Assembly: GCA_963422265.1 (NCBI GenBank)
Contig: OY729416.1
Coordinates: 1,504,001 to 1,568,000 of the forward strand
From: Thermodesulfobacteriota bacterium
Lineage (GTDB): Bacteria; Desulfobacterota_D; UBA1144; Nemesobacterales; UBA2774
Length of the DNA stretch: 64,000 bases
Reading direction: 5' to 3'
A model generated the notes under the pieces. That model had not been told where the DNA came from. It was given only the letters and a program-made list of their open reading frames with translations, and did not search any database. Each line of letters starts with the position of its first letter. Position 1 is the first letter of the stretch. Made by a program: the position numbers and the translations under genes. Below, piece by piece: positions 3 to 40,340 of this stretch.

Positions 3-1154
3 ATTGTAAAAGGGGTTCTGGACTTCAAAGTCAAAGGAGCAGTTATCAAATATGTGGGACGGTGTAGGGAGAATAATGAGAAAGGGAAAACTATTTCGTT
101 CATCAAGCTGTTTTATCTTATAGATTTTCTTACAGGCGCGCTTGCTTTTCTCGCGGCGGTCTTGCTAGCGGGCATTGCGGACAGGTTTTTTATCAAGTCG
201 GAAAGCGCCTTTGAATTGGTCTTTATTTACTCTTTTGCTCTTTTTGTTTCAACAGTCAATACAAGTTCCCGTGCGATTCTGGAAGTTTTCGAGAAGTTTG
301 GCAATGTGGCTGTTGCGGACACCTTTGGGATTGGGGTGAGGGTTGGCTTTGTTCTTGTGTTTCTTGCCGCGGGGTTCGGAATAAAAGGCGCTTTTACGGG
401 TTATGTTGCAGCGACTTTTTTGCATTTTTCCGTTTTGCAGTTTCTTGTGAATCGCGCTTTGGTCAGTGAGGAATTGAGCGGGTGGCTTAGCGCAAGCATT
501 GGAACGGTGGCGAATGAATTCAGGAATGTTCTTTCATTTGTTATGAGCTTAACTGTTTCAGCATTTTTAAACAGAGTTCTGAACAGAAATTTCCCCATAC
601 TTGTTCTGGGACATTTTTTCACAAGTGAAATCTCTGGGCTCTACAAGGCATCAACCGCTTTTTCAAAAGTGGTGAAAAACTTGAAATCTCCGGTAAAGAG
701 ATCGATTTATCCCGCTCTTGTTAGACTTGAGCAACACGGTGCTTACGGTGATTTCAAAAAACTTGTTTTCTACTCAATAGGATTTGTGGCGAAATTTTTT
801 GTTCCTGTCGGAGCCATATGTTTTATATTTGCGGACGACATTATAAGTATTTTCTTTGGGACGGAATTTGCTCCCGCGGCAAATGCGATGAGGATTTTTG
901 TGGTTGTGGAGGTTTTGTCCGGGCTTTCTTTCTGGACGTCTCCCGTCTATCTCTCATTGGGAAGGACATGGTTCGTAACAATGCTGTCTCTTCTAGGTGC
1001 TTTGTTTTATACGGTTTCGCTATTTTATCTTTCCGCTGCCTATTCGTTTGAGGGCGCGGCTTTGGCAAGACTTGCCCCTTATCTTGTTACACTGCCTGCG
1101 GCTATTTTTCTTTTCAGAGAGATAAGGAGGAGGAGCAAAAAACAGAGTTTTTAG
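3..1154 (+). CDS. Wzx-like oligosaccharide flippase / polysaccharide export protein, 5' end outside window
   Basis: Multi-TM hydrophobic ORF with Wzx-type segments (LVLGHFFTSEISGLY, IYPALVRL, FFGTEFAPAANAMRI). The frame is open back to position 3. Adjacent to glycosyltransferases. Confidence 0.8.
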   Translation: MVKGVLDFKVKGAVIKYVGRCRENNEKGKTISFIKLFYLIDFLTGALAFLAAVLLAGIADRFFIKSESAFELVFIYSFALFVSTVNTSSRAILEVFEKFGNVAVADTFGIGVRVGFVLVFLAAGFGIKGAFTGYVAATFLHFSVLQFLVNRALVSEELSGWLSASIGTVANEFRNVLSFVMSLTVSAFLNRVLNRNFPILVLGHFFTSEISGLYKASTAFSKVVKNLKSPVKRSIYPALVRLEQHGAYGDFKKLVFYSIGFVAKFFVPVGAICFIFADDIISIFFGTEFAPAANAMRIFVVVEVLSGLSFWTSPVYLSLGRTWFVTMLSLLGALFYTVSLFYLSAAYSFEGAALARLAPYLVTLPAAIFLFREIRRRSKKQSF

Positions 1155-1159
1155 ACTGA

Positions 1160-2314
1160 CTACTTACTGGCAGATTCAACAACCTCCCGAAACAGTTTTT
1201 CATGTTCTGAGACTGTTTTTTCAATGGTGAAGTTCTGCGCTCTTTTACGCGCGTTTTGAGACAGCTTTTCTCTCAGTTTACCGTCTTTCAATATTCTGAC
1301 AATCGCCCCTGCCATTGCCTTAGGATTTGCGACCGGGACGAGAAGTCCATTTTTGCCGTCTTCTATCATCTCATTAGCACCAAATTTGTGGTCGGTGCTG
1401 GCAATTGGAAGTCCAAGGGCTAAAGCTTCAAGCAATGAGTTTGAAAATCCCTCGTAAAGCGATGAAGAAATGTAAAGGTCCGCCGCTTTCATAAACGGAT
1501 ACGGATTCGGTTTTTCACCAACCAGTGATACACGGTTACCGAGATTCAATCTATCAATTTGAGTTAGCATCCTGCGCTTTACCCCTTCTTGTTCCCGACC
1601 GCCGACTATCATAAGTCTTGCTTTTACAGTTTGGTTCACAATTTCGAGGGCTTCAATAAGGTGAGGAAATCCCTTTGCTGGAACGAGCCTTCCAACTGAA
1701 ATAATAAGTGGAGCATCTTTGTCGTCTAGCCAGGGGTGTTTCACAATTTCACGGCTTTTTTTCTCTATTAATTCAATATCCAAACCGTTGTAAATTACAT
1801 GCGGTCTTGATTTAAGCTTCCAGAATCTCTGCGCCTCGTCTGCCAATCCGTATGAGTTTGCCACTATTTTTGTGGAAAGTTTCCTGCTTGATTTTCGCAC
1901 AAGAAAGGTCTGCAATCCGTGCGGAGTCCATAAGCTTGTTCTCATTTTTCGTGAAGGATTGTTAATCTCCGCCATTACCACAGGTATTCCCAGAATTTTC
2001 CCAACAATAGTTGATGGTAAGGGCATAACCCGTGAGTAGATGATATCAGGCTTAAAATCTCTTGCGGCATGCCAGACCGCAACTGCCTTCAGGATAGATT
2101 TGAGTGGCCATCTTTCAGTCAGGTTAAGTTTGGAGTATATGATGTTTCTTTCTATTTCTGGGGGATAAACTCCTGAAAATCCACCTTCCTTTTTCATAAT
2201 AAAGAGGGATGTTCCTTCTATATTCCTCAATCTAGCAAAGCCTTTCGCCAAATTTAAAATTTGTCTTTCTGCTCCTCCGATTTCAAGGTGTTGATTTACA
2301 AACATCACTCTCAA
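1160..2314 (-). CDS. GT4 (GT-B fold) glycosyltransferase
   Basis: GGAERQ N-terminal motif, VGRLVPAKG, and the E-x7-E motif in SSLYEGFSNSLLEALALG. Confidence 0.92.
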   Translation of the reverse strand: MRVMFVNQHLEIGGAERQILNLAKGFARLRNIEGTSLFIMKKEGGFSGVYPPEIERNIIYSKLNLTERWPLKSILKAVAVWHAARDFKPDIIYSRVMPLPSTIVGKILGIPVVMAEINNPSRKMRTSLWTPHGLQTFLVRKSSRKLSTKIVANSYGLADEAQRFWKLKSRPHVIYNGLDIELIEKKSREIVKHPWLDDKDAPLIISVGRLVPAKGFPHLIEALEIVNQTVKARLMIVGGREQEGVKRRMLTQIDRLNLGNRVSLVGEKPNPYPFMKAADLYISSSLYEGFSNSLLEALALGLPIASTDHKFGANEMIEDGKNGLLVPVANPKAMAGAIVRILKDGKLREKLSQNARKRAQNFTIEKTVSEHEKLFREVVESASK

Positions 2315-33666: not shown

Positions 33667-35002
33667 CCGCCACCTCTTTCTCAATCCTTTTGATTTTAAT
33701 TTCAGTTATACGTTTTCCCGATACCTTGCTAATCCAAAAATACAAGCTCCCGAAGGAGATGCTTTCTCCCTCTCTTGGAAATCTTCCGAACAAATCAAAT
33801 ACGAAACCCGCAACAGTTTCGTGGTCCTCCTCCGCTGGGAGAATAGACCTTTCAAGCTCCTCCCCTAAATTATAAAGGCCACCCGTCCTTAGAAGCATAA
33901 ATAGGAAAGTATCGTTAAACTCATCTATTTTCATGCTGCCGGGAATCACCAGAGAATTACCCTCCTGCCTAACTTCGGACTTTTTGACGATTCTTCTCTC
34001 GTCTTCAATCTCACCGAAAAGTTCCTCAAGAATATCTTCCATCGTCAGTATTCCATCCAGTCGTCCATATTCATCTACGACTATGGCTATTTGCACCCTG
34101 TTCTGCTGAAACTCCTTTAAGAGGTCAAATGCCATTTTTGTTCTTGGAATAAAATAAGGTGGCCTTAAGTAATTCTCAATCGCCAGTTTCTCAGATAGAT
34201 CAGACGATAGGAGATCCTTAGCGTAAAGAACGCCGATCACGTTATCTTTGTCGCCCTTATAAACCGGCGTTCTTGAGAATCCCCTCTTCTTAACTTCATA
34301 TAAAGCGTCTTTACAAGAAAGGTTTGCAGGAAGTAAAAAGCACTCAACGCCCGGAGTCATAATTTTGTGAGCAGGCACCTCTTCAAGCTTAAACAGGCTC
34401 CCAACAAGCTCCTTTTCAATATCTGTTATAACCCCCTCTTCGCTTCCCATGCCCACGAGTGTCTTAACCTCGTCAGGTGTGAACTCCTTTTTCTGCTCGT
34501 ATTCTATTTTTCCACCTAATGGTCTTGTAAAACCAATTGAAAGAACCACTAAAATCCACCTGATAGGGGTGATCAACACGTGGAACGCGTGCAAGGGGTA
34601 AGAGACGACCGTAGCAATTGCCCTTGGATATTTAACCCCAAGAATCTTAGGTGCGATTTCCCCCAGGATAAGAAGGCTAGGAGACGCAATACTAACTGAC
34701 AAAAGCATTAAGGCTTGTTCAGATAAGCCATCATCTAATACCTTTTTGACAGTCAACCCTATTACGCTCGAATAGGCTACGTTGACGACTTCATCCGCAA
34801 ATAAGATTGTAACTATGAGCTTATATGGCTCTTTTAAGAGCTTTTCTATGATTGCTGAGCTCTTTTTCCCTTCCTTCTTAAGCCTGTCTCTCTGGTGTCT
34901 GCCTAATGAAAATAGAGAGCCTTCCGATAGGCAGAAGAAACTTGATAGAAAGAGAAGTAAGATTATTAATACGAGATTATTAGTTAAAGATATATCGTTC
35001 AT
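33656..35002 (-). CDS. CNNM/CorB (DUF21-CBS-CorC) hemolysin-family protein, second paralog
   Basis: SEGSLFSL, GEIAPK, FSRTPVY, VVDEYG, TMEDILEELFGEIEDE. Confidence 0.9.
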   Translation of the reverse strand: MNDISLTNNLVLIILLLFLSSFFCLSEGSLFSLGRHQRDRLKKEGKKSSAIIEKLLKEPYKLIVTILFADEVVNVAYSSVIGLTVKKVLDDGLSEQALMLLSVSIASPSLLILGEIAPKILGVKYPRAIATVVSYPLHAFHVLITPIRWILVVLSIGFTRPLGGKIEYEQKKEFTPDEVKTLVGMGSEEGVITDIEKELVGSLFKLEEVPAHKIMTPGVECFLLPANLSCKDALYEVKKRGFSRTPVYKGDKDNVIGVLYAKDLLSSDLSEKLAIENYLRPPYFIPRTKMAFDLLKEFQQNRVQIAIVVDEYGRLDGILTMEDILEELFGEIEDERRIVKKSEVRQEGNSLVIPGSMKIDEFNDTFLFMLLRTGGLYNLGEELERSILPAEEDHETVAGFVFDLFGRFPREGESISFGSLYFWISKVSGKRITEIKIKRIEKEVADVA

Positions 35003-36022
35003 TTACGTCCCGAAGTGAACAAACCCCCTTTTATCAGGTCTAATTTCCTCGTCGTTTGAATCTATTAGTATCAAAGCGTTCTCGGGCACAACGCGTCCTA
35101 TTTCCGTAACCCTGACGTCTAGGCGCCGACATATTTCATAGACCAAGTCAGTGTTCTCCCTAGGAGAGGCAAAGAGCAGCTCATAATCCTCGCCTCCGCT
35201 CAAAGCTAAACTGTAATAATCCTCGCTATAGTCAGATACGCGCTCTCTATATTCAGGGGACGTAGGTATTTCGTCAACGAATAAACGCGCCCCTAAGCCC
35301 TGTCTTGTCGTTATTCTTTCCATATCTATAATAAGCCCGTCGCTTACATCTATCATTGCAGTAACAAGTCCTGATACGGCAAGCTCTCTTCCTAGCGTGA
35401 GTCTAGGCTGAGGCATTATATGCCTTCTTATTAGATCAGGATTCCCTGTTATCATATTGGGCTGCGGTTCTTCTGAGAAGTTAGGTAGTTTAACTGAATG
35501 CTGAATTAGCGTGCGCCCAAGCGCCGAATCCCCTAGAGTGCCGCTTACGTATATATAATCCCCCGTCTTAGCACCGCTCCTCATAACCATAGATTCAGGC
35601 TCGACCTCTCCAAGGACTGTAATATCCAAGAAGAGGTTTTTGGAAGAGCTTAAATTCCCACCTACAAGCTCAACGCAAAATTCCTCCTGCGCAGATTGAA
35701 ATCCCTTTATAAGATCGTCAAGGTAATCCTCATCCTCTTCAGCAGAAAACCCCGCTGAAGCCAATATGAATTTAGGAATGCCCCCCATGGCTCCAATGTC
35801 GCTTAAAGAGGCGGCAACGGCTTTTCTAGCCAGGTCTCTAGGTTTAATAGAGGACTTTAGAAAATGGACGCCCTCTACCTGCGAGTCGGTTGTGGATAGG
35901 ACAAGATTGCCCGGCTGAAACCTTACCGCCGCGCAATCATCGCCAATTCCGAGATCCACACAGGCAGACGCCCTACGAAATTGTTCCTCAATACGCTTAA
36001 GGGCGCTAAGCTCATCTATCAC
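35003..36022 (-). CDS. thiL: Thiamine-monophosphate kinase
   Basis: GIGDDCA, EGVHF, SDIGAMGG, IDVSDGL, GGEDYEL. Confidence 0.95.
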   Translation of the reverse strand: MIDELSALKRIEEQFRRASACVDLGIGDDCAAVRFQPGNLVLSTTDSQVEGVHFLKSSIKPRDLARKAVAASLSDIGAMGGIPKFILASAGFSAEEDEDYLDDLIKGFQSAQEEFCVELVGGNLSSSKNLFLDITVLGEVEPESMVMRSGAKTGDYIYVSGTLGDSALGRTLIQHSVKLPNFSEEPQPNMITGNPDLIRRHIMPQPRLTLGRELAVSGLVTAMIDVSDGLIIDMERITTRQGLGARLFVDEIPTSPEYRERVSDYSEDYYSLALSGGEDYELLFASPRENTDLVYEICRRLDVRVTEIGRVVPENALILIDSNDEEIRPDKRGFVHFGT

Positions 36023-36032
36023 AATTCAATAC

Positions 36033-36422
36033 CTACGGTCTTTTTATGAACTTAGATTTTCTCGCTAATTGCATTGCAAGTAGCTTATTGTGCTCTTTAT
36101 CCTCGTCGTCGCTTTTCCATCCAATTATGTTTGAATGTCTAGGAGGAGGTTCAGCGGGTTCAACCCTTAAATTGTTTTCCTCAACATCTGAGGAACGTAT
36201 ATCAGCTCTGCCCTTGCTACGCTTCTCCCTTTTAGGAAAAAGATATTCATCCTCAATTTTCCAAACTTCCTTATTAGTCAGTCCCTCAATGCTGAAAACG
36301 GAAGTTTCACCGTTACAGGGTATGAATGCTGCGTATTTAATTGTATTGTCAGAAGACCTTATATGATTGGAACTGTAAATATATCTTGTTAGCACTTTAG
36401 AAGAGTTTTTCAGTTGTGACAT
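36033..36422 (-). CDS. Hypothetical protein, possible ADP-ribosyltransferase/RES-like fold
   Basis: About 129 aa with the pattern LTRY..AF.P..ETSVF..GRADI..PPPRHSNI.GW. Last gene of a coupled trio. Start moved to ATG 36422. Confidence 0.6.
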   Translation of the reverse strand: MSQLKNSSKVLTRYIYSSNHIRSSDNTIKYAAFIPCNGETSVFSIEGLTNKEVWKIEDEYLFPKREKRSKGRADIRSSDVEENNLRVEPAEPPPRHSNIIGWKSDDEDKEHNKLLAMQLARKSKFIKRP

Positions 36423-36427
36423 AAATA

Positions 36428-37141
36428 TCAATCTGAGTACAATCTTTCGATGTAACAAACTATACTCTGGGGAATGAAATCATTGAAACTCTCTTTTCCA
36501 TAAGCGGTATTGCTAGAGTCGAATATACCGGCGTAAGTTAGTTTTTCATTATCATCCATACTAAAAGCAAACGTTCCCTTACTCTCACGATGCCATTCAA
36601 GTGCTATATCGCCATTGGGTTCCGGCGTTATATCGGGCATAGGAAGATTTACAAATGATTCAGCAAACATAATAATCAACTTTCTAGCTCTCTCATAACT
36701 CCCCTCAGTTATAGCATGGGCACCGTATCCATCCCAGCCACCCTCAGAACATTCCTTATATACCTCACCCAAAGCCGATAATACCTCACCTAACCTATTG
36801 GGTTGACTCCCTTTTTGTATTCCAGAGACAATGTCTCGTAATCGGAAAGAGTTTTTTAATATAAGGTCTCGTCTTGTGGGAAAATACGCAGATTCGCGCT
36901 TATATATACATGCATTCCGTGTTTGAGATAGACTCTCTGAATCGGCTTCAGCAAATGTGTGGGCATTTGATAGCATGCTATCTGGTAGAACCTCTGCTTC
37001 TGAATTAGGTAGGGCTTTGCTAACATCAGAGCCAGAAAGGGCGTTCCTTATGATTTCAGGAGGATAATTATGCCTTTTTGTTAATAGAGACTTAGGTAGG
37101 GAAGGTATAGAATTCTCTGTATAGTCCTGACCCAAACTCAC
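36428..37141 (-). CDS. Hypothetical protein (Ser/Pro-rich N-terminus, WDGYGA...P.I.PEP.G.I.LEW domain)
   Basis: 237-aa ORF overlapping the upstream gene by 4 nt. Confidence 0.7.
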   Translation of the reverse strand: MSLGQDYTENSIPSLPKSLLTKRHNYPPEIIRNALSGSDVSKALPNSEAEVLPDSMLSNAHTFAEADSESLSQTRNACIYKRESAYFPTRRDLILKNSFRLRDIVSGIQKGSQPNRLGEVLSALGEVYKECSEGGWDGYGAHAITEGSYERARKLIIMFAESFVNLPMPDITPEPNGDIALEWHRESKGTFAFSMDDNEKLTYAGIFDSSNTAYGKESFNDFIPQSIVCYIERLYSD

Positions 37142-37800
37142 GACAGCTTTTCCTCAAAGTATTTTTTCAGAGTCTGTTTTAAGTCCTCTTGAAAGCTACT
37201 AAATTTGTTAAGTGCTAACCGTATTCTTTCTAATTCTCTATATTCATGACCTATTTCGGTATGATGATTACAATCTAACCCAATACTTCGTTCGTTTCCC
37301 CTTCCTCTCACGTTCAGAGTTAGTGTCCAAGATGGTGGTATCTTGAATCCAATGCTTAACGGCTCTATGGAGCTCTGCCATTCGCCTTCCCTGAGAAAGC
37401 GGTTCTTCACCCAATTTAATGGTTCTTCTGCACCAATAGAAAGATGCCAGTTCATACCGAGAGCTGTGTAGGGCACATATCTAAGCACTTCAACGTATTT
37501 TTCCGCACACTTGTGAACAAGATATGATTCTTTGAAATCACCATTCACTTCTTCCTGAATTGTAAGATTATTCGGATCGACGTGCCATTGAATACCGTTC
37601 CTGAAAGATACTATTGCAAGTCCCGGTGATGAAAGCAAAGGAGGGTTATCCGCTGTTTCCCAATCACTACCGACTATTCCGTTTCCCTTAAGGAAGTCGG
37701 GATTAACTATAGTGGGGTTGTGCTCCCGTGCTAGTATTATGACTGAGACGCTGTCTAAAGTAAAGTTAGTTAGACCGTCCTGCATAGAACCTTTCATCAT
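37138..37800 (-). CDS. Hypothetical protein, TIGR04255-like by pattern
   Basis: 220 aa with HNPTIVNPDFL, YTALGMN and LDCNHH. First gene of the trio. Confidence 0.65.
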   Translation of the reverse strand: MMKGSMQDGLTNFTLDSVSVIILAREHNPTIVNPDFLKGNGIVGSDWETADNPPLLSSPGLAIVSFRNGIQWHVDPNNLTIQEEVNGDFKESYLVHKCAEKYVEVLRYVPYTALGMNWHLSIGAEEPLNWVKNRFLREGEWQSSIEPLSIGFKIPPSWTLTLNVRGRGNERSIGLDCNHHTEIGHEYRELERIRLALNKFSSFQEDLKQTLKKYFEEKLS

Positions 37801-38001
37801 GGTTGAAACCTGTCACGTTAAAATAACACTTACAGCATAATAACTATTTATACGCAATCCAATATAATAAAGAAATAAATGTATTGCAAGAATTTACCCT
37901 ACTGATATGTAAGGGTTTTACCTTTTATGGAGAAAGTTTACTCCTTTGTCTCATATCCCGCCCGAGCTTTTACGTAAAGTTAAGGTATAATCCCATATAG
38001 T

Positions 38002-38358
38002 ATGAAAGATGAGAAAATAAGAATATACGTAAAACCTACGTGCACGACTTGTAGAAAGGCTCTCAAAATTCTAAAAGAGAGCGAGGTGGAATTTGAAAAC
38101 ATCAACTACTTCGAAAAGCCTTTCAATGAAAAAACACTCACCCAACTGATAAAAAACTTAGGTATTCCCCCTAAGGAGTTACTAAGGAAACGTGCGAAAA
38201 TCTATAAAGACATGGAGCTATCGGAAAAAGAGCTAACGTATTCTGAGATTATAGGTTTAATGGTCAAGTATCCCGAGCTACTGCAACGCCCCATCATTGT
38301 AAGAGGAGATAAAGCTATATTGGCTAGACCGGTGGAGGAGATTAATGGGTTACTATGA
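38002..38358 (+). CDS. ArsC/Spx-family protein
   Basis: PTCTTCRKA, ELLRK, PELLQRPI, LARP. Confidence 0.88.
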   Translation: MKDEKIRIYVKPTCTTCRKALKILKESEVEFENINYFEKPFNEKTLTQLIKNLGIPPKELLRKRAKIYKDMELSEKELTYSEIIGLMVKYPELLQRPIIVRGDKAILARPVEEINGLL

Positions 38359-39884
38359 TTTCTAAAGTGCTAAGCAGCGCAGTTTTGGGAGTGGATGCCT
38401 ACTTAGTAGAGGTGGAGGTGGATATCTCGTTTGGACTACCACAATTTTCAACAGTTGGGCTGCCCGAAGGAGCTGTAAAAGAGAGCAAGGAGCGCGTAAG
38501 AGCAGCTATAAAGAATTGCGGTTATGAATTTCCTCCAAGAAGAATTACCGTTAACCTTGCCCCTGCAGACATAAGGAAAGAGGGTTCAGCACTAGACCTG
38601 CCGATGTCGGTAGGCATTTTAGCGGCTACGGGTCTTATAGATCACGAAAAGCTCAATGATTATATAATCATGGGGGAGCTGTCCTTAAACGGTGATATTA
38701 AAGGCATAAAAGGAGTGCTCCCTTCCTCAATTTGCGCTAGAGACTCAAGACTAAAGGGTATTATTATCCCCAAACAAAATGCCCAAGAGGCAGCGGTAGT
38801 AAATGGTATTGAAGTCTTGGCGGTGGAGTCGCTCCAGGACGTTGTAGAATTCTTCGCAGGAAAAAGAGATATAGCCCCTACCCAAACGGACGTAAAGTCT
38901 ATATTCAATCAGGCAAAAAAATATCAAATAGATTTCCACGAGGTAAAGGGACAGGAACACGTCAAGCGTGCTTTAGAGGTTGCTGCAAGCGGGGGGCACA
39001 ACGTTTTAATGATAGGATCGCCCGGCACTGGCAAGACTATGCTTGCGAGGAGGCTTCCTTCGATCCTTCCGGATATGAGTTTTGAGGAATCCTTGGAAAC
39101 CACGAAGATTTACTCTGTTTCTGGGCTTCTACCCAGTAATTCTGCTCTATTCGCCACACGCCCCTTTAGATCTCCCCATCATACTATCAGCGACGCTGGT
39201 CTCATAGGTGGAGGAGCCATACCTAAACCGGGAGAGGTGAGTCTTGCTCATAATGGTGTACTATTCTTGGACGAGCTTCCTGAATTTAGAAAGAACGTGC
39301 TGGAAGTAATGAGGCAACCACTCGAGGATGGCATGGTAACGATATCGAGAGCCGTCACCTCGATCACTTATCCCTCAAATCTTATGCTAATAACGGCTAT
39401 GAACCCATGTCCTTGCGGATATCACGGCGATCCCAAAAAGGAGTGCTCGTGCACAATAAATCAGATACACAAATATAGAGCTAAGGTCTCTGGCCCTCTA
39501 CTAGACAGAATTGACATTCACGTTGAGGTGCCCCCCGTAAAATATAAAGAGCTTTCAGAAGACTCAGGGGGAGAGACCTCTTCCCAGATAAAAGAGCGTG
39601 TTAATAGGGCACGAGAAATTCAGATAGACAGGTTCAAAGGAACAAGCATCCATTCTAACTCTCAGATGCCCCCTTCTTATGTCAGAAAGCTCGCCAAGCC
39701 TGACGATGCTGGAGTAAAACTTCTGGAAACAGCGATAGACAAGCTTGGACTCAGCGCAAGGGCATACGACCGCATACTCAAAGTGGCGCGAACTATAGCT
39801 GACCTTGAAGGATCCAGCAACGTCCTTTCACATCATATATCGGAATCTATACAGTATCGCTCGCTTGACAGAAGCCTAGCTTAG
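38355..39884 (+). CDS. comM: YifB/ComM-family Mg chelatase-like AAA+ ATPase
   Basis: VNLAPADIRKEG, GSPGTGKT, FRSPHHT, LAHNGVLFLDELPEF, MNPCPCG. Confidence 0.93.
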   Translation: MISKVLSSAVLGVDAYLVEVEVDISFGLPQFSTVGLPEGAVKESKERVRAAIKNCGYEFPPRRITVNLAPADIRKEGSALDLPMSVGILAATGLIDHEKLNDYIIMGELSLNGDIKGIKGVLPSSICARDSRLKGIIIPKQNAQEAAVVNGIEVLAVESLQDVVEFFAGKRDIAPTQTDVKSIFNQAKKYQIDFHEVKGQEHVKRALEVAASGGHNVLMIGSPGTGKTMLARRLPSILPDMSFEESLETTKIYSVSGLLPSNSALFATRPFRSPHHTISDAGLIGGGAIPKPGEVSLAHNGVLFLDELPEFRKNVLEVMRQPLEDGMVTISRAVTSITYPSNLMLITAMNPCPCGYHGDPKKECSCTINQIHKYRAKVSGPLLDRIDIHVEVPPVKYKELSEDSGGETSSQIKERVNRAREIQIDRFKGTSIHSNSQMPPSYVRKLAKPDDAGVKLLETAIDKLGLSARAYDRILKVARTIADLEGSSNVLSHHISESIQYRSLDRSLA

Positions 39885-39914: not shown

Positions 39915-40241
39915 TTATTGGTTTAGAAAAGGCATACTCTCAACAATCCAGTCCCTTAACCGCGACCCGGCTACGTGCATTATAATAATGTTACCCTCTT
40001 CATCCTTTTCTCTCATAAGTATTTGTCCCATCAATCTATTAACTATTTGTTCTATATCCTGATTGCTAAAACCTTCTGTATCTATGAGTTCAGAAAGCCT
40101 AATAGTAATAATACCTCTTTTAGGCGAACCGAATTCCGCGTCTTCTGAGTGCTCAATGTTAAAGGTAACGTCCAGAGAGTCCGGGTCATCGGTTGATATT
40201 TCTGAAATTCCTACGATTTTAATATAATCCAGCGTGGGCAT
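39915..40241 (-). CDS. Hypothetical acidic protein
   Basis: About 108-aa ORF co-directional with mlaD. No recognisable motif. Confidence 0.55.
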   Translation of the reverse strand: MPTLDYIKIVGISEISTDDPDSLDVTFNIEHSEDAEFGSPKRGIITIRLSELIDTEGFSNQDIEQIVNRLMGQILMREKDEEGNIIIMHVAGSRLRDWIVESMPFLNQ

Positions 40242-40340
40242 ATTGTTTTCAGCTTTCCAGTCCAAATATCTTTGTACATACTATATGCTTCTGTCTCCGG
40301 ACAGGAAGTAGAGGTCACTCTTTGTGAGCTATTTACCCAA

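Follow-up and report, generated by a model that had tools for sequence, protein, structure and literature searches.

Among the described systems that come closest to the locus treated here are the toxin-antitoxin-chaperone (TAC) systems, in which a SecB-like chaperone recognises the chaperone-addiction element of the antitoxin, as outlined in a preprint (10.1101/2024.02.24.581848), and PDC-M32, a PADLOC 'phage defence candidate', which in the outline given by Payne et al. is one of 145 candidates whose role was predicted, through 'guilt by embedding', from their position within known defence systems (bioRxiv 10.1101/2024.01.29.577857). In our searches of the full-text literature, the latter turned up only as a listed PADLOC match in prophages. 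Another point of contact is TIGR04255, described in NCBIfam as a 'sporadically distributed' protein of unknown function, for which a full-text literature search by name found no paper. In this regard, a stretch of 64,000 nucleotides (nt) from a Thermodesulfobacteriota bacterium (assembly GCA_963422265.1, contig OY729416.1, positions 1,504,001 to 1,568,000 of the forward strand), hereafter the window, carries at positions 36033 to 37800 a coupled three-gene cassette, which an earlier note made from the sequence alone had put forward as a candidate toxin-antitoxin-chaperone or anti-phage system. Sequence comparisons place this trio in a large, uncharacterised and combinatorial family of cassettes that matches no named system, and what is new here is a variant with a different first gene, drawn from families without a model or a structure. 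We lean, with moderate confidence, towards regarding it as a candidate tripartite toxin-antitoxin-like or defence module, in which gene 3 would be the effector, gene 2 a clamp upon it and gene 1 an exchangeable sensor or regulator. The genes are laid out as follows:

37138 to 37800, minus strand: gene 1, first gene of the cassette, 220 amino acids (aa) from an ATG start; acidic, isoelectric point (pI) 5.67.
36428 to 37141, minus strand: gene 2, 237 aa from a GTG start.
36806 to 37141, minus strand: Ser/Pro-rich N-terminal part of gene 2 (residues 1-112), predicted to be disordered.
36428 to 36805, minus strand: C-terminal domain of gene 2 (residues 113-237 and the stop codon), acidic, pI 4.47, with WDGYGA and EPxGxIxxEW motifs.
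36033 to 36422, minus strand: gene 3, 129 aa from an ATG; basic, pI 9.35, predicted to be a compact alpha/beta protein; candidate toxin or enzyme.

The three frames are real genes and not chance open reading frames (ORFs), since their homologues are conserved, the models of gene 3 and of the gene 2 C-terminal domain exceed 90 in predicted local distance difference test (pLDDT), and the frames stay open in a second strain. The start of gene 2 overlaps the stop of gene 1 by 4 nt (GTGA), and a 5-nt gap separates the gene 2 stop from the ATG of gene 3, which homologues favour (129 aa) over an alternative upstream TTG (141 aa). All of the coordinates, lengths and spacings given beforehand in the earlier note, including the 10 nt between gene 3 and the thiL gene, were borne out by the sequence, as were the motifs LTRY (R13), TSVF (S41) and RHSNI (H96) in gene 3 and WDGYGA...LEW in gene 2. 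The second strain is represented by a 35-kb contig from another study that spans window positions 34500-39500 and carries the cassette at the same position, differing at 38 of 5001 nt (99.2% identity) without indels; the 10 differences falling within the cassette (5 synonymous, 5 nonsynonymous) leave all three frames open. No contig skipping the cassette was found among four sequencing runs, in three of which coverage is fragmentary.

Word-based searches returned only 4, 15 and 6 relatives of these proteins, whereas profile searches found far more: the gene 3 profile alone, run against 1.84 billion proteins, matched 2799 cluster representatives at E≤0.001, of which 1657 reached E≤1e-10. In a collection of species-representative genomes, the gene 2 domain marks 344 loci from many phyla, including Nitrospirota, Desulfobacterota, Planctomycetota, Gammaproteobacteria and Bacteroidota, and the best 80 of these loci were used as a census of the cassette. 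The co-occurrence of three genes proposed at the outset is upheld by this census. A gene 3 homologue lies directly downstream of the gene 2 domain in 73 of the 80 loci (two of the seven others, L040 and L059, stop at a contig edge), and a coupled upstream gene on the same strand is present in 66, with 5 of the remaining 14 loci beginning too near a contig end to be judged. BLAST clustering divides the upstream genes into class A (50 loci, ~245-250 aa), class B (9 loci, 218-219 aa), which is BLAST-linked to the gene 1 family of the window, and class C (7 loci, ~240 aa), with no mutual sequence similarity between the classes detected by hhalign or hmmsearch. Class A corresponds to TIGR04255, as the four members tested against that model (L018, L025, L057 and L100) matched it with E-values of 4e-37 to 4e-40, and in 45 of the 50 class A loci the upstream gene and the gene 2 homologue overlap by 4 nt, as genes 1 and 2 do. 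Moreover, the earlier statement that the trio could be assigned to no named system stood, as it matches no PADLOC model of a known system.

As to genomic context, the nearest neighbours on both sides of the 80 loci (128 ORFs) include seven RadC proteins, five type I restriction-modification (R-M) specificity subunits, three DprA proteins, two integrases and two ResIII helicases. The context of the cassette is mobile, variable and partly embedded in R-M loci, without a clear defence-island signal. A check for defence-island enrichment, suggested in the earlier note, was in this way answered by some R-M neighbours (the 5 specificity subunits among 128 ORFs) but not by a clear island.

In the source genome, the cassette is an accessory insertion and not part of the core, because gene 3 was found in none of 40 relatives from the same family and order, thiL and an arsC-like gene are adjacent in relatives, and the GC content of the cassette (0.38-0.42) is lower than that of thiL (0.45-0.49). 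The thiL loci of 16 relatives show two CBS-domain genes downstream of thiL in all 16, and in six relatives of the same family (L004, L006, L007, L008, L010 and L011) the arsC-like gene lies divergent to thiL at 263-286 bp; in this genome the 1768-bp cassette occupies the thiL-arsC spacer. None of genes 1, 2 and 3 had a match at any of the 16 thiL loci, and the possibility raised earlier that the trio is core and syntenic with thiL in all relatives is accordingly discarded. A repeat search found no convincing flanking repeats around the cassette. In the whole phylum the gene 3 family is patchy, occurring in 21 of 120 genomes including this one, with at most three matches per genome, and within the source's own family there was one other match, a marginal one, among 32 further genomes. 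The gene 1 family is present in 10 of the 120 genomes, and several genomes hold 2-3 copies of the cassette. These three accessory genes would have arrived by horizontal transfer, as a conflict module that is of toxin-antitoxin or abortive-infection type.

The predicted pair of the proposal consists of genes 2 and 3. The model of gene 2 has a mean pLDDT per 10-residue block of 39-50 over residues 1-110 and of at least 90 over residues 121-237, in agreement with the Ser/Pro-rich disordered N-terminus and the compact WDGYGA...LEW domain that had been described from the sequence. This C-terminal domain is predicted to consist of two helices, a five-strand meander and a final helix, and in 88 sequences it keeps W136, P169, P175, G177, E182, W183, G205, G215, E217 and P224 invariant; its low pI is shared by the family (median 4.85). 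A Foldseek search of the Protein Data Bank (PDB) with gene 2 gave no match at E≤0.001 and only high-deviation ones, a search that the disordered half may have hampered. When gene 2 residues 110-237 were modelled together with gene 3, the complex scored 0.91, 0.91 and 0.90, against 0.13 for the best control, with at least 96% of contacts agreeing between runs and a pLDDT of at least 89 for the partners. In the calibration of this score, 58 of 80 solved complexes scored as high, as did 2 of 110 mismatched pairs; these figures are approximate here, custom alignments having been used. The predicted interface comprises W136-A141, 170-176, E182, 202-206 and 212-216 on the gene 2 side, and residues 16-36, S41 and the helix 105-121 on the gene 3 side, engaging the most conserved residues of both proteins, S41 included. 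The complex modelling called for in the earlier note consequently came out in favour of binding, and the interaction of the gene 2 C-terminal domain with gene 3 is supported, though not shown, by these predictions.

A detailed view of gene 3 is provided by its AlphaFold2 (AF2) model (pLDDT 94.8, predicted template modelling score 0.87), a compact alpha/beta structure with these elements:

Strands of gene 3 in the AF2 model: residues 10-15 (with R13), 39-44 (with S41), 71-76 (with R72), 86-89, 96-100 (with H96 at its start) and 124-127.
Helices of gene 3 in the AF2 model: residues 50-65 and 105-122.

Among 150 sequences P35, S41 and H96 are invariant, and R13, A32, F33, V42, W54, R72, L85, A97, W102 and A116 are conserved in 93-97% (R13 in 95%). 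The basic character of the protein recurs in family median pI values of 8.85 and 9.15. Taken together, R13, S41, R72 and H96 suggest enzymatic chemistry on a substrate that carries phosphate, which would be RNA/DNA or NAD+. The earlier note had seen in gene 3 a protein reminiscent of the NAD-using ADP-ribosyltransferase (ART) and RES toxins; the Arg-Ser-His order was confirmed, and Pfam gave no match to the corresponding families. ARTs carry a triad (R-S-E or H-Y-E/D/Q) on strands 1, 2 and 5, and in the known clades its third member is a catalytic Glu, Asp or Gln. In the gene 3 model, R13, S41 and H96 do fall on strands 1, 2 and 5, and the first two fit the triad, but the third is a His; Tpt1 is likewise not known to have a catalytic Glu and, as gene 3 is, is rich in conserved Arg and His residues. 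With respect to the fold, Foldseek searches of the PDB and BFVD with gene 3 gave no match at E≤0.001. The PDB matches with a root-mean-square deviation (rmsd) below 6 Å over at least 95 columns were exclusively ART-fold proteins (E 0.39-0.79, rmsd 4.2-5.9 Å, 95-104 columns), values that do not constitute a fold assignment. They comprise Tpt1/KptA structures (9ldi, 9ld4, 9ldc and 8tfz), with template modelling (TM) scores of 0.42-0.44, probabilities of 0.35-0.57 and E-values above 0.1, and TreTu, an Rhs toxin that ADP-ribosylates EF-Tu (7zhm, TM 0.37), with two toxin ARTs (4z9d and 1lta) further down the list. Searches of Pfam (ART and RES families included), NCBIfam and PADLOC with gene 3 gave no match at E≤1, and a RES domain toxin is thus not supported by Pfam. 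The profile built from the 150 sequences found a single chance-level match among PDB sequences (eIF4E, E=0.067), and in a protein atlas gene 3 met unnamed clusters only. The ART-likeness of the model is in our opinion a coherent but weak signal and a minority reading.

The way in which the cassette decays offers a complementary view of the roles of its genes. Gene 3 is broken while the gene 2 frame remains open in L055 (92 aa), L081 (56 aa) and L086 (two frames), and in four or five loci gene 2 is kept without gene 3; in L026 and L067 it is the first gene that is shortened, with genes 2 and 3 intact. From these loci gene 2 appears to be the always-kept component, as expected of a neutraliser. 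Genes 2 and 3 are also adjacent, as in type II toxin-antitoxin pairs, in the 73 loci mentioned above, and the pairing of an acidic C-terminal domain (pI 4.47) with a basic partner (pI 9.35) is typical of such pairs. Under the proposal that we favour, the small basic enzyme encoded by gene 3 would be the effector and gene 2 its neutraliser, with the acidic C-terminal domain clamping S41, the conserved AFxP loop and the long helix at the C-terminus of gene 3; the binding is predicted by the models, and the neutralisation is putative. The variable and disordered N-terminus of gene 2 would probably link it to the product of gene 1, an exchangeable third component whose most likely role would be that of a sensor or regulator timing the release of gene 3. 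The module could serve in phage defence or in mere self-stabilisation, both of which fall within the proposal.

Several observations weigh against this proposal. The complex of genes 2 and 3 is a prediction, and no DNA-binding domain was detected in gene 2, although many type II antitoxins have one. None of the three proteins has a Pfam or NCBIfam match at E≤1, and none attains a PADLOC model for toxins, antitoxins or defence families already known. Most of the 128 neighbouring ORFs in the census are ordinary genes, and the cassette of the window sits amid housekeeping genes and not in a defence island. The copy of gene 3 in the window may be attenuated or specialised, because it departs from the consensus at four strongly conserved positions, with S44 (Arg in 89%), E57 (Gly in 91%), S97 (Ala in 95%) and K103 (Pro in 87%); it does retain the invariant P35, S41 and H96. 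Finally, a single origin of gene 1-type cassettes, as opposed to the swapping of first genes discussed below, is not formally rejected by the approximately unbiased (AU) test (p=0.053).

The first gene is where this cassette differs from most of its relatives. Cassettes led by TIGR04255 have that gene in the position of gene 1, with the same 4-nt overlap and the same gene 3 family downstream, but gene 1 of the window fails the TIGR04255 model and has no profile similarity to it. It stays below the curated cut-off of that model (30 bits), has no match at E≤1 in Pfam, NCBIfam or PADLOC, and the comparison of its family with TIGR04255-type neighbours gave an hhalign probability of 0.1% and hmmsearch E-values above 0.1. 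In this genome the TIGR04255 model matches only another locus (46.2 bits). A 'putative TIGR04255 family protein' cluster stands at rank 2 for gene 1 in the protein atlas, with a score of 0.94, which is a lead only. The six homologues found by the word-based search share 45-65% identity with gene 1, and profiles of all three cassette families and one TIGR04255 protein found chance-level matches only among PDB sequences. By these sequence criteria gene 1 belongs to a separate small family (class B) in the position usually held by TIGR04255, and the earlier remark on its resemblance to TIGR04255-like proteins finds backing in the position, the coupling and the existence of homologous cassettes led by TIGR04255, but not in a match to the model or in similarity between profiles.

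The N-terminal part of gene 2 may be matched to the first gene, since gene 2 homologues differ in length according to which class lies upstream, with 150-174 aa in class A, 184-197 aa in class B and 233-243 aa in class C. In a tree of the gene 2 C-terminal domain and gene 3, the window pair nests (Shimodaira-Hasegawa-like approximate likelihood ratio test, SH-aLRT, 99) with three TIGR04255-led loci (L029 and, both recorded as Candidatus Dadabacteria, L018 and L019) and with L020, where a contig end truncates the upstream gene. The remaining eight class B loci group apart, in a clade next to class C, and a constraint that keeps every class B row together lowers the log-likelihood by 49.6 units. 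This topology suggests, but does not prove, that the first gene was swapped in the lineage of the window.

Further combinations were found with another third gene, of the 'YLSVNW...DPSHSG' family, which the gene 1 family also leads in L139, L141, L144 and L145. In L139 (genome G032) and L141 (G035) the gene 1 homologues (E 4e-117 and 9e-85) are followed by second genes of 319 and 220 aa and third genes of 136 aa, all from families unlike genes 2 and 3 of the window, and the middle protein of L139 contains a repeated 'MEVVKNRGSESTQSTYVGANVECF' segment. The source genome itself holds a second cassette (L098, G000:C1:164788-168498; genes 2223..1453, 1477..821 and 885..355, all on the minus strand), made up of a TIGR04255 protein of 256 aa (46 bits), a middle protein of 218 aa with a weak PDC-M32A match (E=0.0077) and a third protein of 176 aa of the 'YMSVNW...DPSHSG' type, which belongs to the same third-gene family as those of L139, L141, L144 and L145. 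Comparison by hhalign of the gene 3 and gene 2 profiles with the single proteins of L098 was not significant, whereas a five-sequence alignment of the second third-gene family aligned with the gene 3 profile over 119 columns (E=0.0022, probability 13%) with the motifs in register, a result that is suggestive only. TIGR04255 and the gene 1 family may well do the same job, the best argument being that each pairs with both third-gene families.

Such modularity is also the starting point of a reading with the roles reversed, in which the effector would be whichever family occupies the first position (TIGR04255, class C or the gene 1 family), while genes 2 and 3 would be the core that senses or regulates, gene 3 being an enzyme of signalling or modification and not a toxin. 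It is the effector that is exchanged in many defence systems, and here at least three dissimilar families alternate as first gene on a conserved backbone of genes 2 and 3. The locus L046, where gene 3 is missing but a TIGR04255 gene and gene 2 remain, and the PADLOC family PDC-M32A, which joins an unrelated N-terminal domain to a C-terminal domain like that of gene 2, point the same way. We nevertheless hold this assignment to be unlikely, as it is gene 3 that is basic and carries enzyme-like invariant polar residues whereas gene 1 is acidic, the pair formed by genes 2 and 3 persists in L026 and L067 next to a shortened first gene, and the models made of genes 2 and 3 place the conserved surface of gene 2 on gene 3 and not on gene 1.

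The likeness to PDC-M32 deserves a closer look. Gene 2 matches PDC-M32A with E=0.001 (residues 144-210 against positions 280-343 of 375), below a safe threshold, and weak matches to this model were also obtained for gene 2 homologues at other loci, with a clearer one (E=4.7e-10) for a 165-aa homologue in the phylum. The PADLOC check advised in the earlier note thus found something for gene 2, but genes 1 and 3 match no PADLOC model, and none of the proteins tested matched PDC-M32B. The core domain of gene 2 resembles the C-terminal part of PDC-M32A, and some cassette loci lie beside type I R-M genes; PDC-M32A, however, behaves as a fusion of 375 residues, with an N-terminal part distinct from both TIGR04255 and gene 1. 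As a separate observation, the two halves of PDC-M32A match separate genes in the phylum (L124-L127; genomes G031, G032, G086 and G092), with positions 7-257 resembling a 304-aa ORF in one genome and positions 254-371 resembling 165-aa ORFs in three genomes. These 165-aa ORFs sit in another three-gene arrangement, of ~100, 165 and 108-139 aa.

The analogy with TAC systems drawn in the earlier note would make gene 3 an NAD+-using ART/RES toxin, gene 2 its antitoxin and gene 1 a chaperone or phage sensor, the whole being an analogue of CmdTAC. As far as the published outlines of these systems go (PMC11618068; 10.1101/2024.02.24.581848), the likeness lies in three coupled genes, a small enzyme-like protein, a predicted binder and a third protein, and may extend to an ART-like fold in the model of gene 3. 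The coupled three-gene layout is real and conserved, the low-rmsd PDB matches are ART-fold proteins alone, and the Arg, Ser and His residues follow the order of the ART triad. Set against this are the want of any Foldseek match at E≤0.001, a best TM score below 0.5, the absence of Pfam ART/RES matches at E≤1 and of PDB sequence relatives, and a His where the known clades have Glu, Asp or Gln. Moreover, TAC systems are defined, in the preprint 10.1101/2024.02.24.581848, by a SecB-like chaperone and a chaperone-addiction element, whereas gene 1 has no match to SecB or to any other Pfam family, no SecB-like chaperone is found for the cassette in Pfam or NCBIfam at E≤1, and no C-terminal chaperone-addiction element is apparent. 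The disordered extension of gene 2 is N-terminal, with much less of it in most homologues (150-174 aa), the third component comes first in the cassette, and PADLOC gives no match to CmdT, CmdA or CmdC, nor any match of genes 1 and 3 to known systems. The analogy was not supported by these comparisons, and we consider this explanation quite unlikely. A SecB-type TAC was set aside as a candidate on the missing SecB match, the missing PADLOC match to CmdTAC and a disordered part of gene 2 that is N-terminal and not a C-terminal addiction tail.

A very improbable explanation is that of an accessory enzyme complex outside any conflict, such as a Tpt1-like RNA end-modifying or repair enzyme with a regulatory subunit, or of a product tied to thiL, which could invoke the RNA-processing enzymes Tpt1/KptA as the best structural neighbours of gene 3, the thiL gene 10 nt after the cassette with no terminator-like site between them, the intact cassette in the second strain at 99.2% identity and the many housekeeping neighbours across loci, but which is opposed by a link to thiL seen nowhere else (none of the 16 thiL loci of relatives, with 128 heterogeneous neighbours elsewhere), by a patchy and multi-copy distribution, by cassettes on viral contigs of IMG/VR and beside R-M genes, and by the decay of gene 3 and the acid/base pairing, which fit a toxin-antitoxin pair better. 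With regard to the structural neighbours themselves, Tpt1/KptA and TreTu (9ldi, 8tfz and 7zhm) are the best low-rmsd matches of the gene 3 model, but gene 3 is a single 129-aa domain that lacks the RNA lobe of Tpt1 and has no sequence similarity to it, with TM below 0.5.

The junctions of the cassette with its neighbours are the following:

37801 to 38001: intergenic region of 201 bp separating gene 1 from the divergent arsC-like gene; likely promoter region of the cassette and, by read-through, of thiL.
36023 to 36032, minus strand: junction between the gene 3 stop and thiL, 10 nt; thiL GTG at 36022.

Within the 201-bp region there is a single promoter-like site (37889-37861, minus strand), which is a consensus match only, and in the 10-nt junction a scan revealed nothing resembling a terminator. 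In this genome thiL lacks the ~270-bp upstream spacer of its relatives and starts 10 nt past the stop of gene 3. The thiL gene probably lies at the 3' end of the cassette transcription unit, its transcription being driven either from the promoter of the cassette or from one located within it, because the 10-nt junction has no terminator-like site and the upstream spacer has been lost. Further along, a 116-aa ORF was noticed at 39915-40265 on the minus strand, between comM and an MlaD-like gene.

The occurrence of these domains in viral sequences adds another facet. In IMG/VR viral contigs the gene 2 domain was found in 24 loci, of which four (L100, L104, L119 and L120) have a gene of the gene 3 family according to a hidden Markov model (HMM) search, and L116 shows a similar third gene by eye. 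Searching the viral contigs with the gene 3 alignment gave 52 pattern matches, none of which was confirmed. In 19 of the 24 loci (L101-L103, L105-L115, L117, L118 and L121-L123) the gene 2-type domain stands alone in genes of ~92-164 aa, some of which adjoin, by eye, ORFs resembling integrase, terminase or lysis genes. It is a speculation from these sequences that the phage-borne orphan gene 2 domains are neutraliser decoys used in counter-defence. Going one step beyond our preferred proposal, one may picture a large, combinatorial three-gene immune superfamily with a hitherto unrecognised minimal R-S-H effector (distantly ART/Tpt1-like, using NAD+ to modify nucleic acid ends or otherwise attacking RNA), the new WDGYGA clamp that would hold it inactive, interchangeable first genes (TIGR04255, class C or the gene 1 family) as sensors of infection and phage decoys that would keep the toxin silent, an extension that we regard as unlikely.

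If the toxin-antitoxin-like or defence proposal is true, three protein families with thousands of members and with no Pfam model or solved structure would gain a function, a new toxin-neutraliser-sensor architecture would be recognised across many phyla, and TIGR04255 would gain a role. For the bacterium itself, thiL would have been placed at the end of the cassette transcription unit, where a housekeeping gene does not usually end up. Orphan genes for the clamp domain, as found on viral contigs, would in turn be testable candidates for phage counter-defence, and a swappable first gene together with two third-gene families would offer a natural system in which to follow the recombination of sensors and effectors in immunity.

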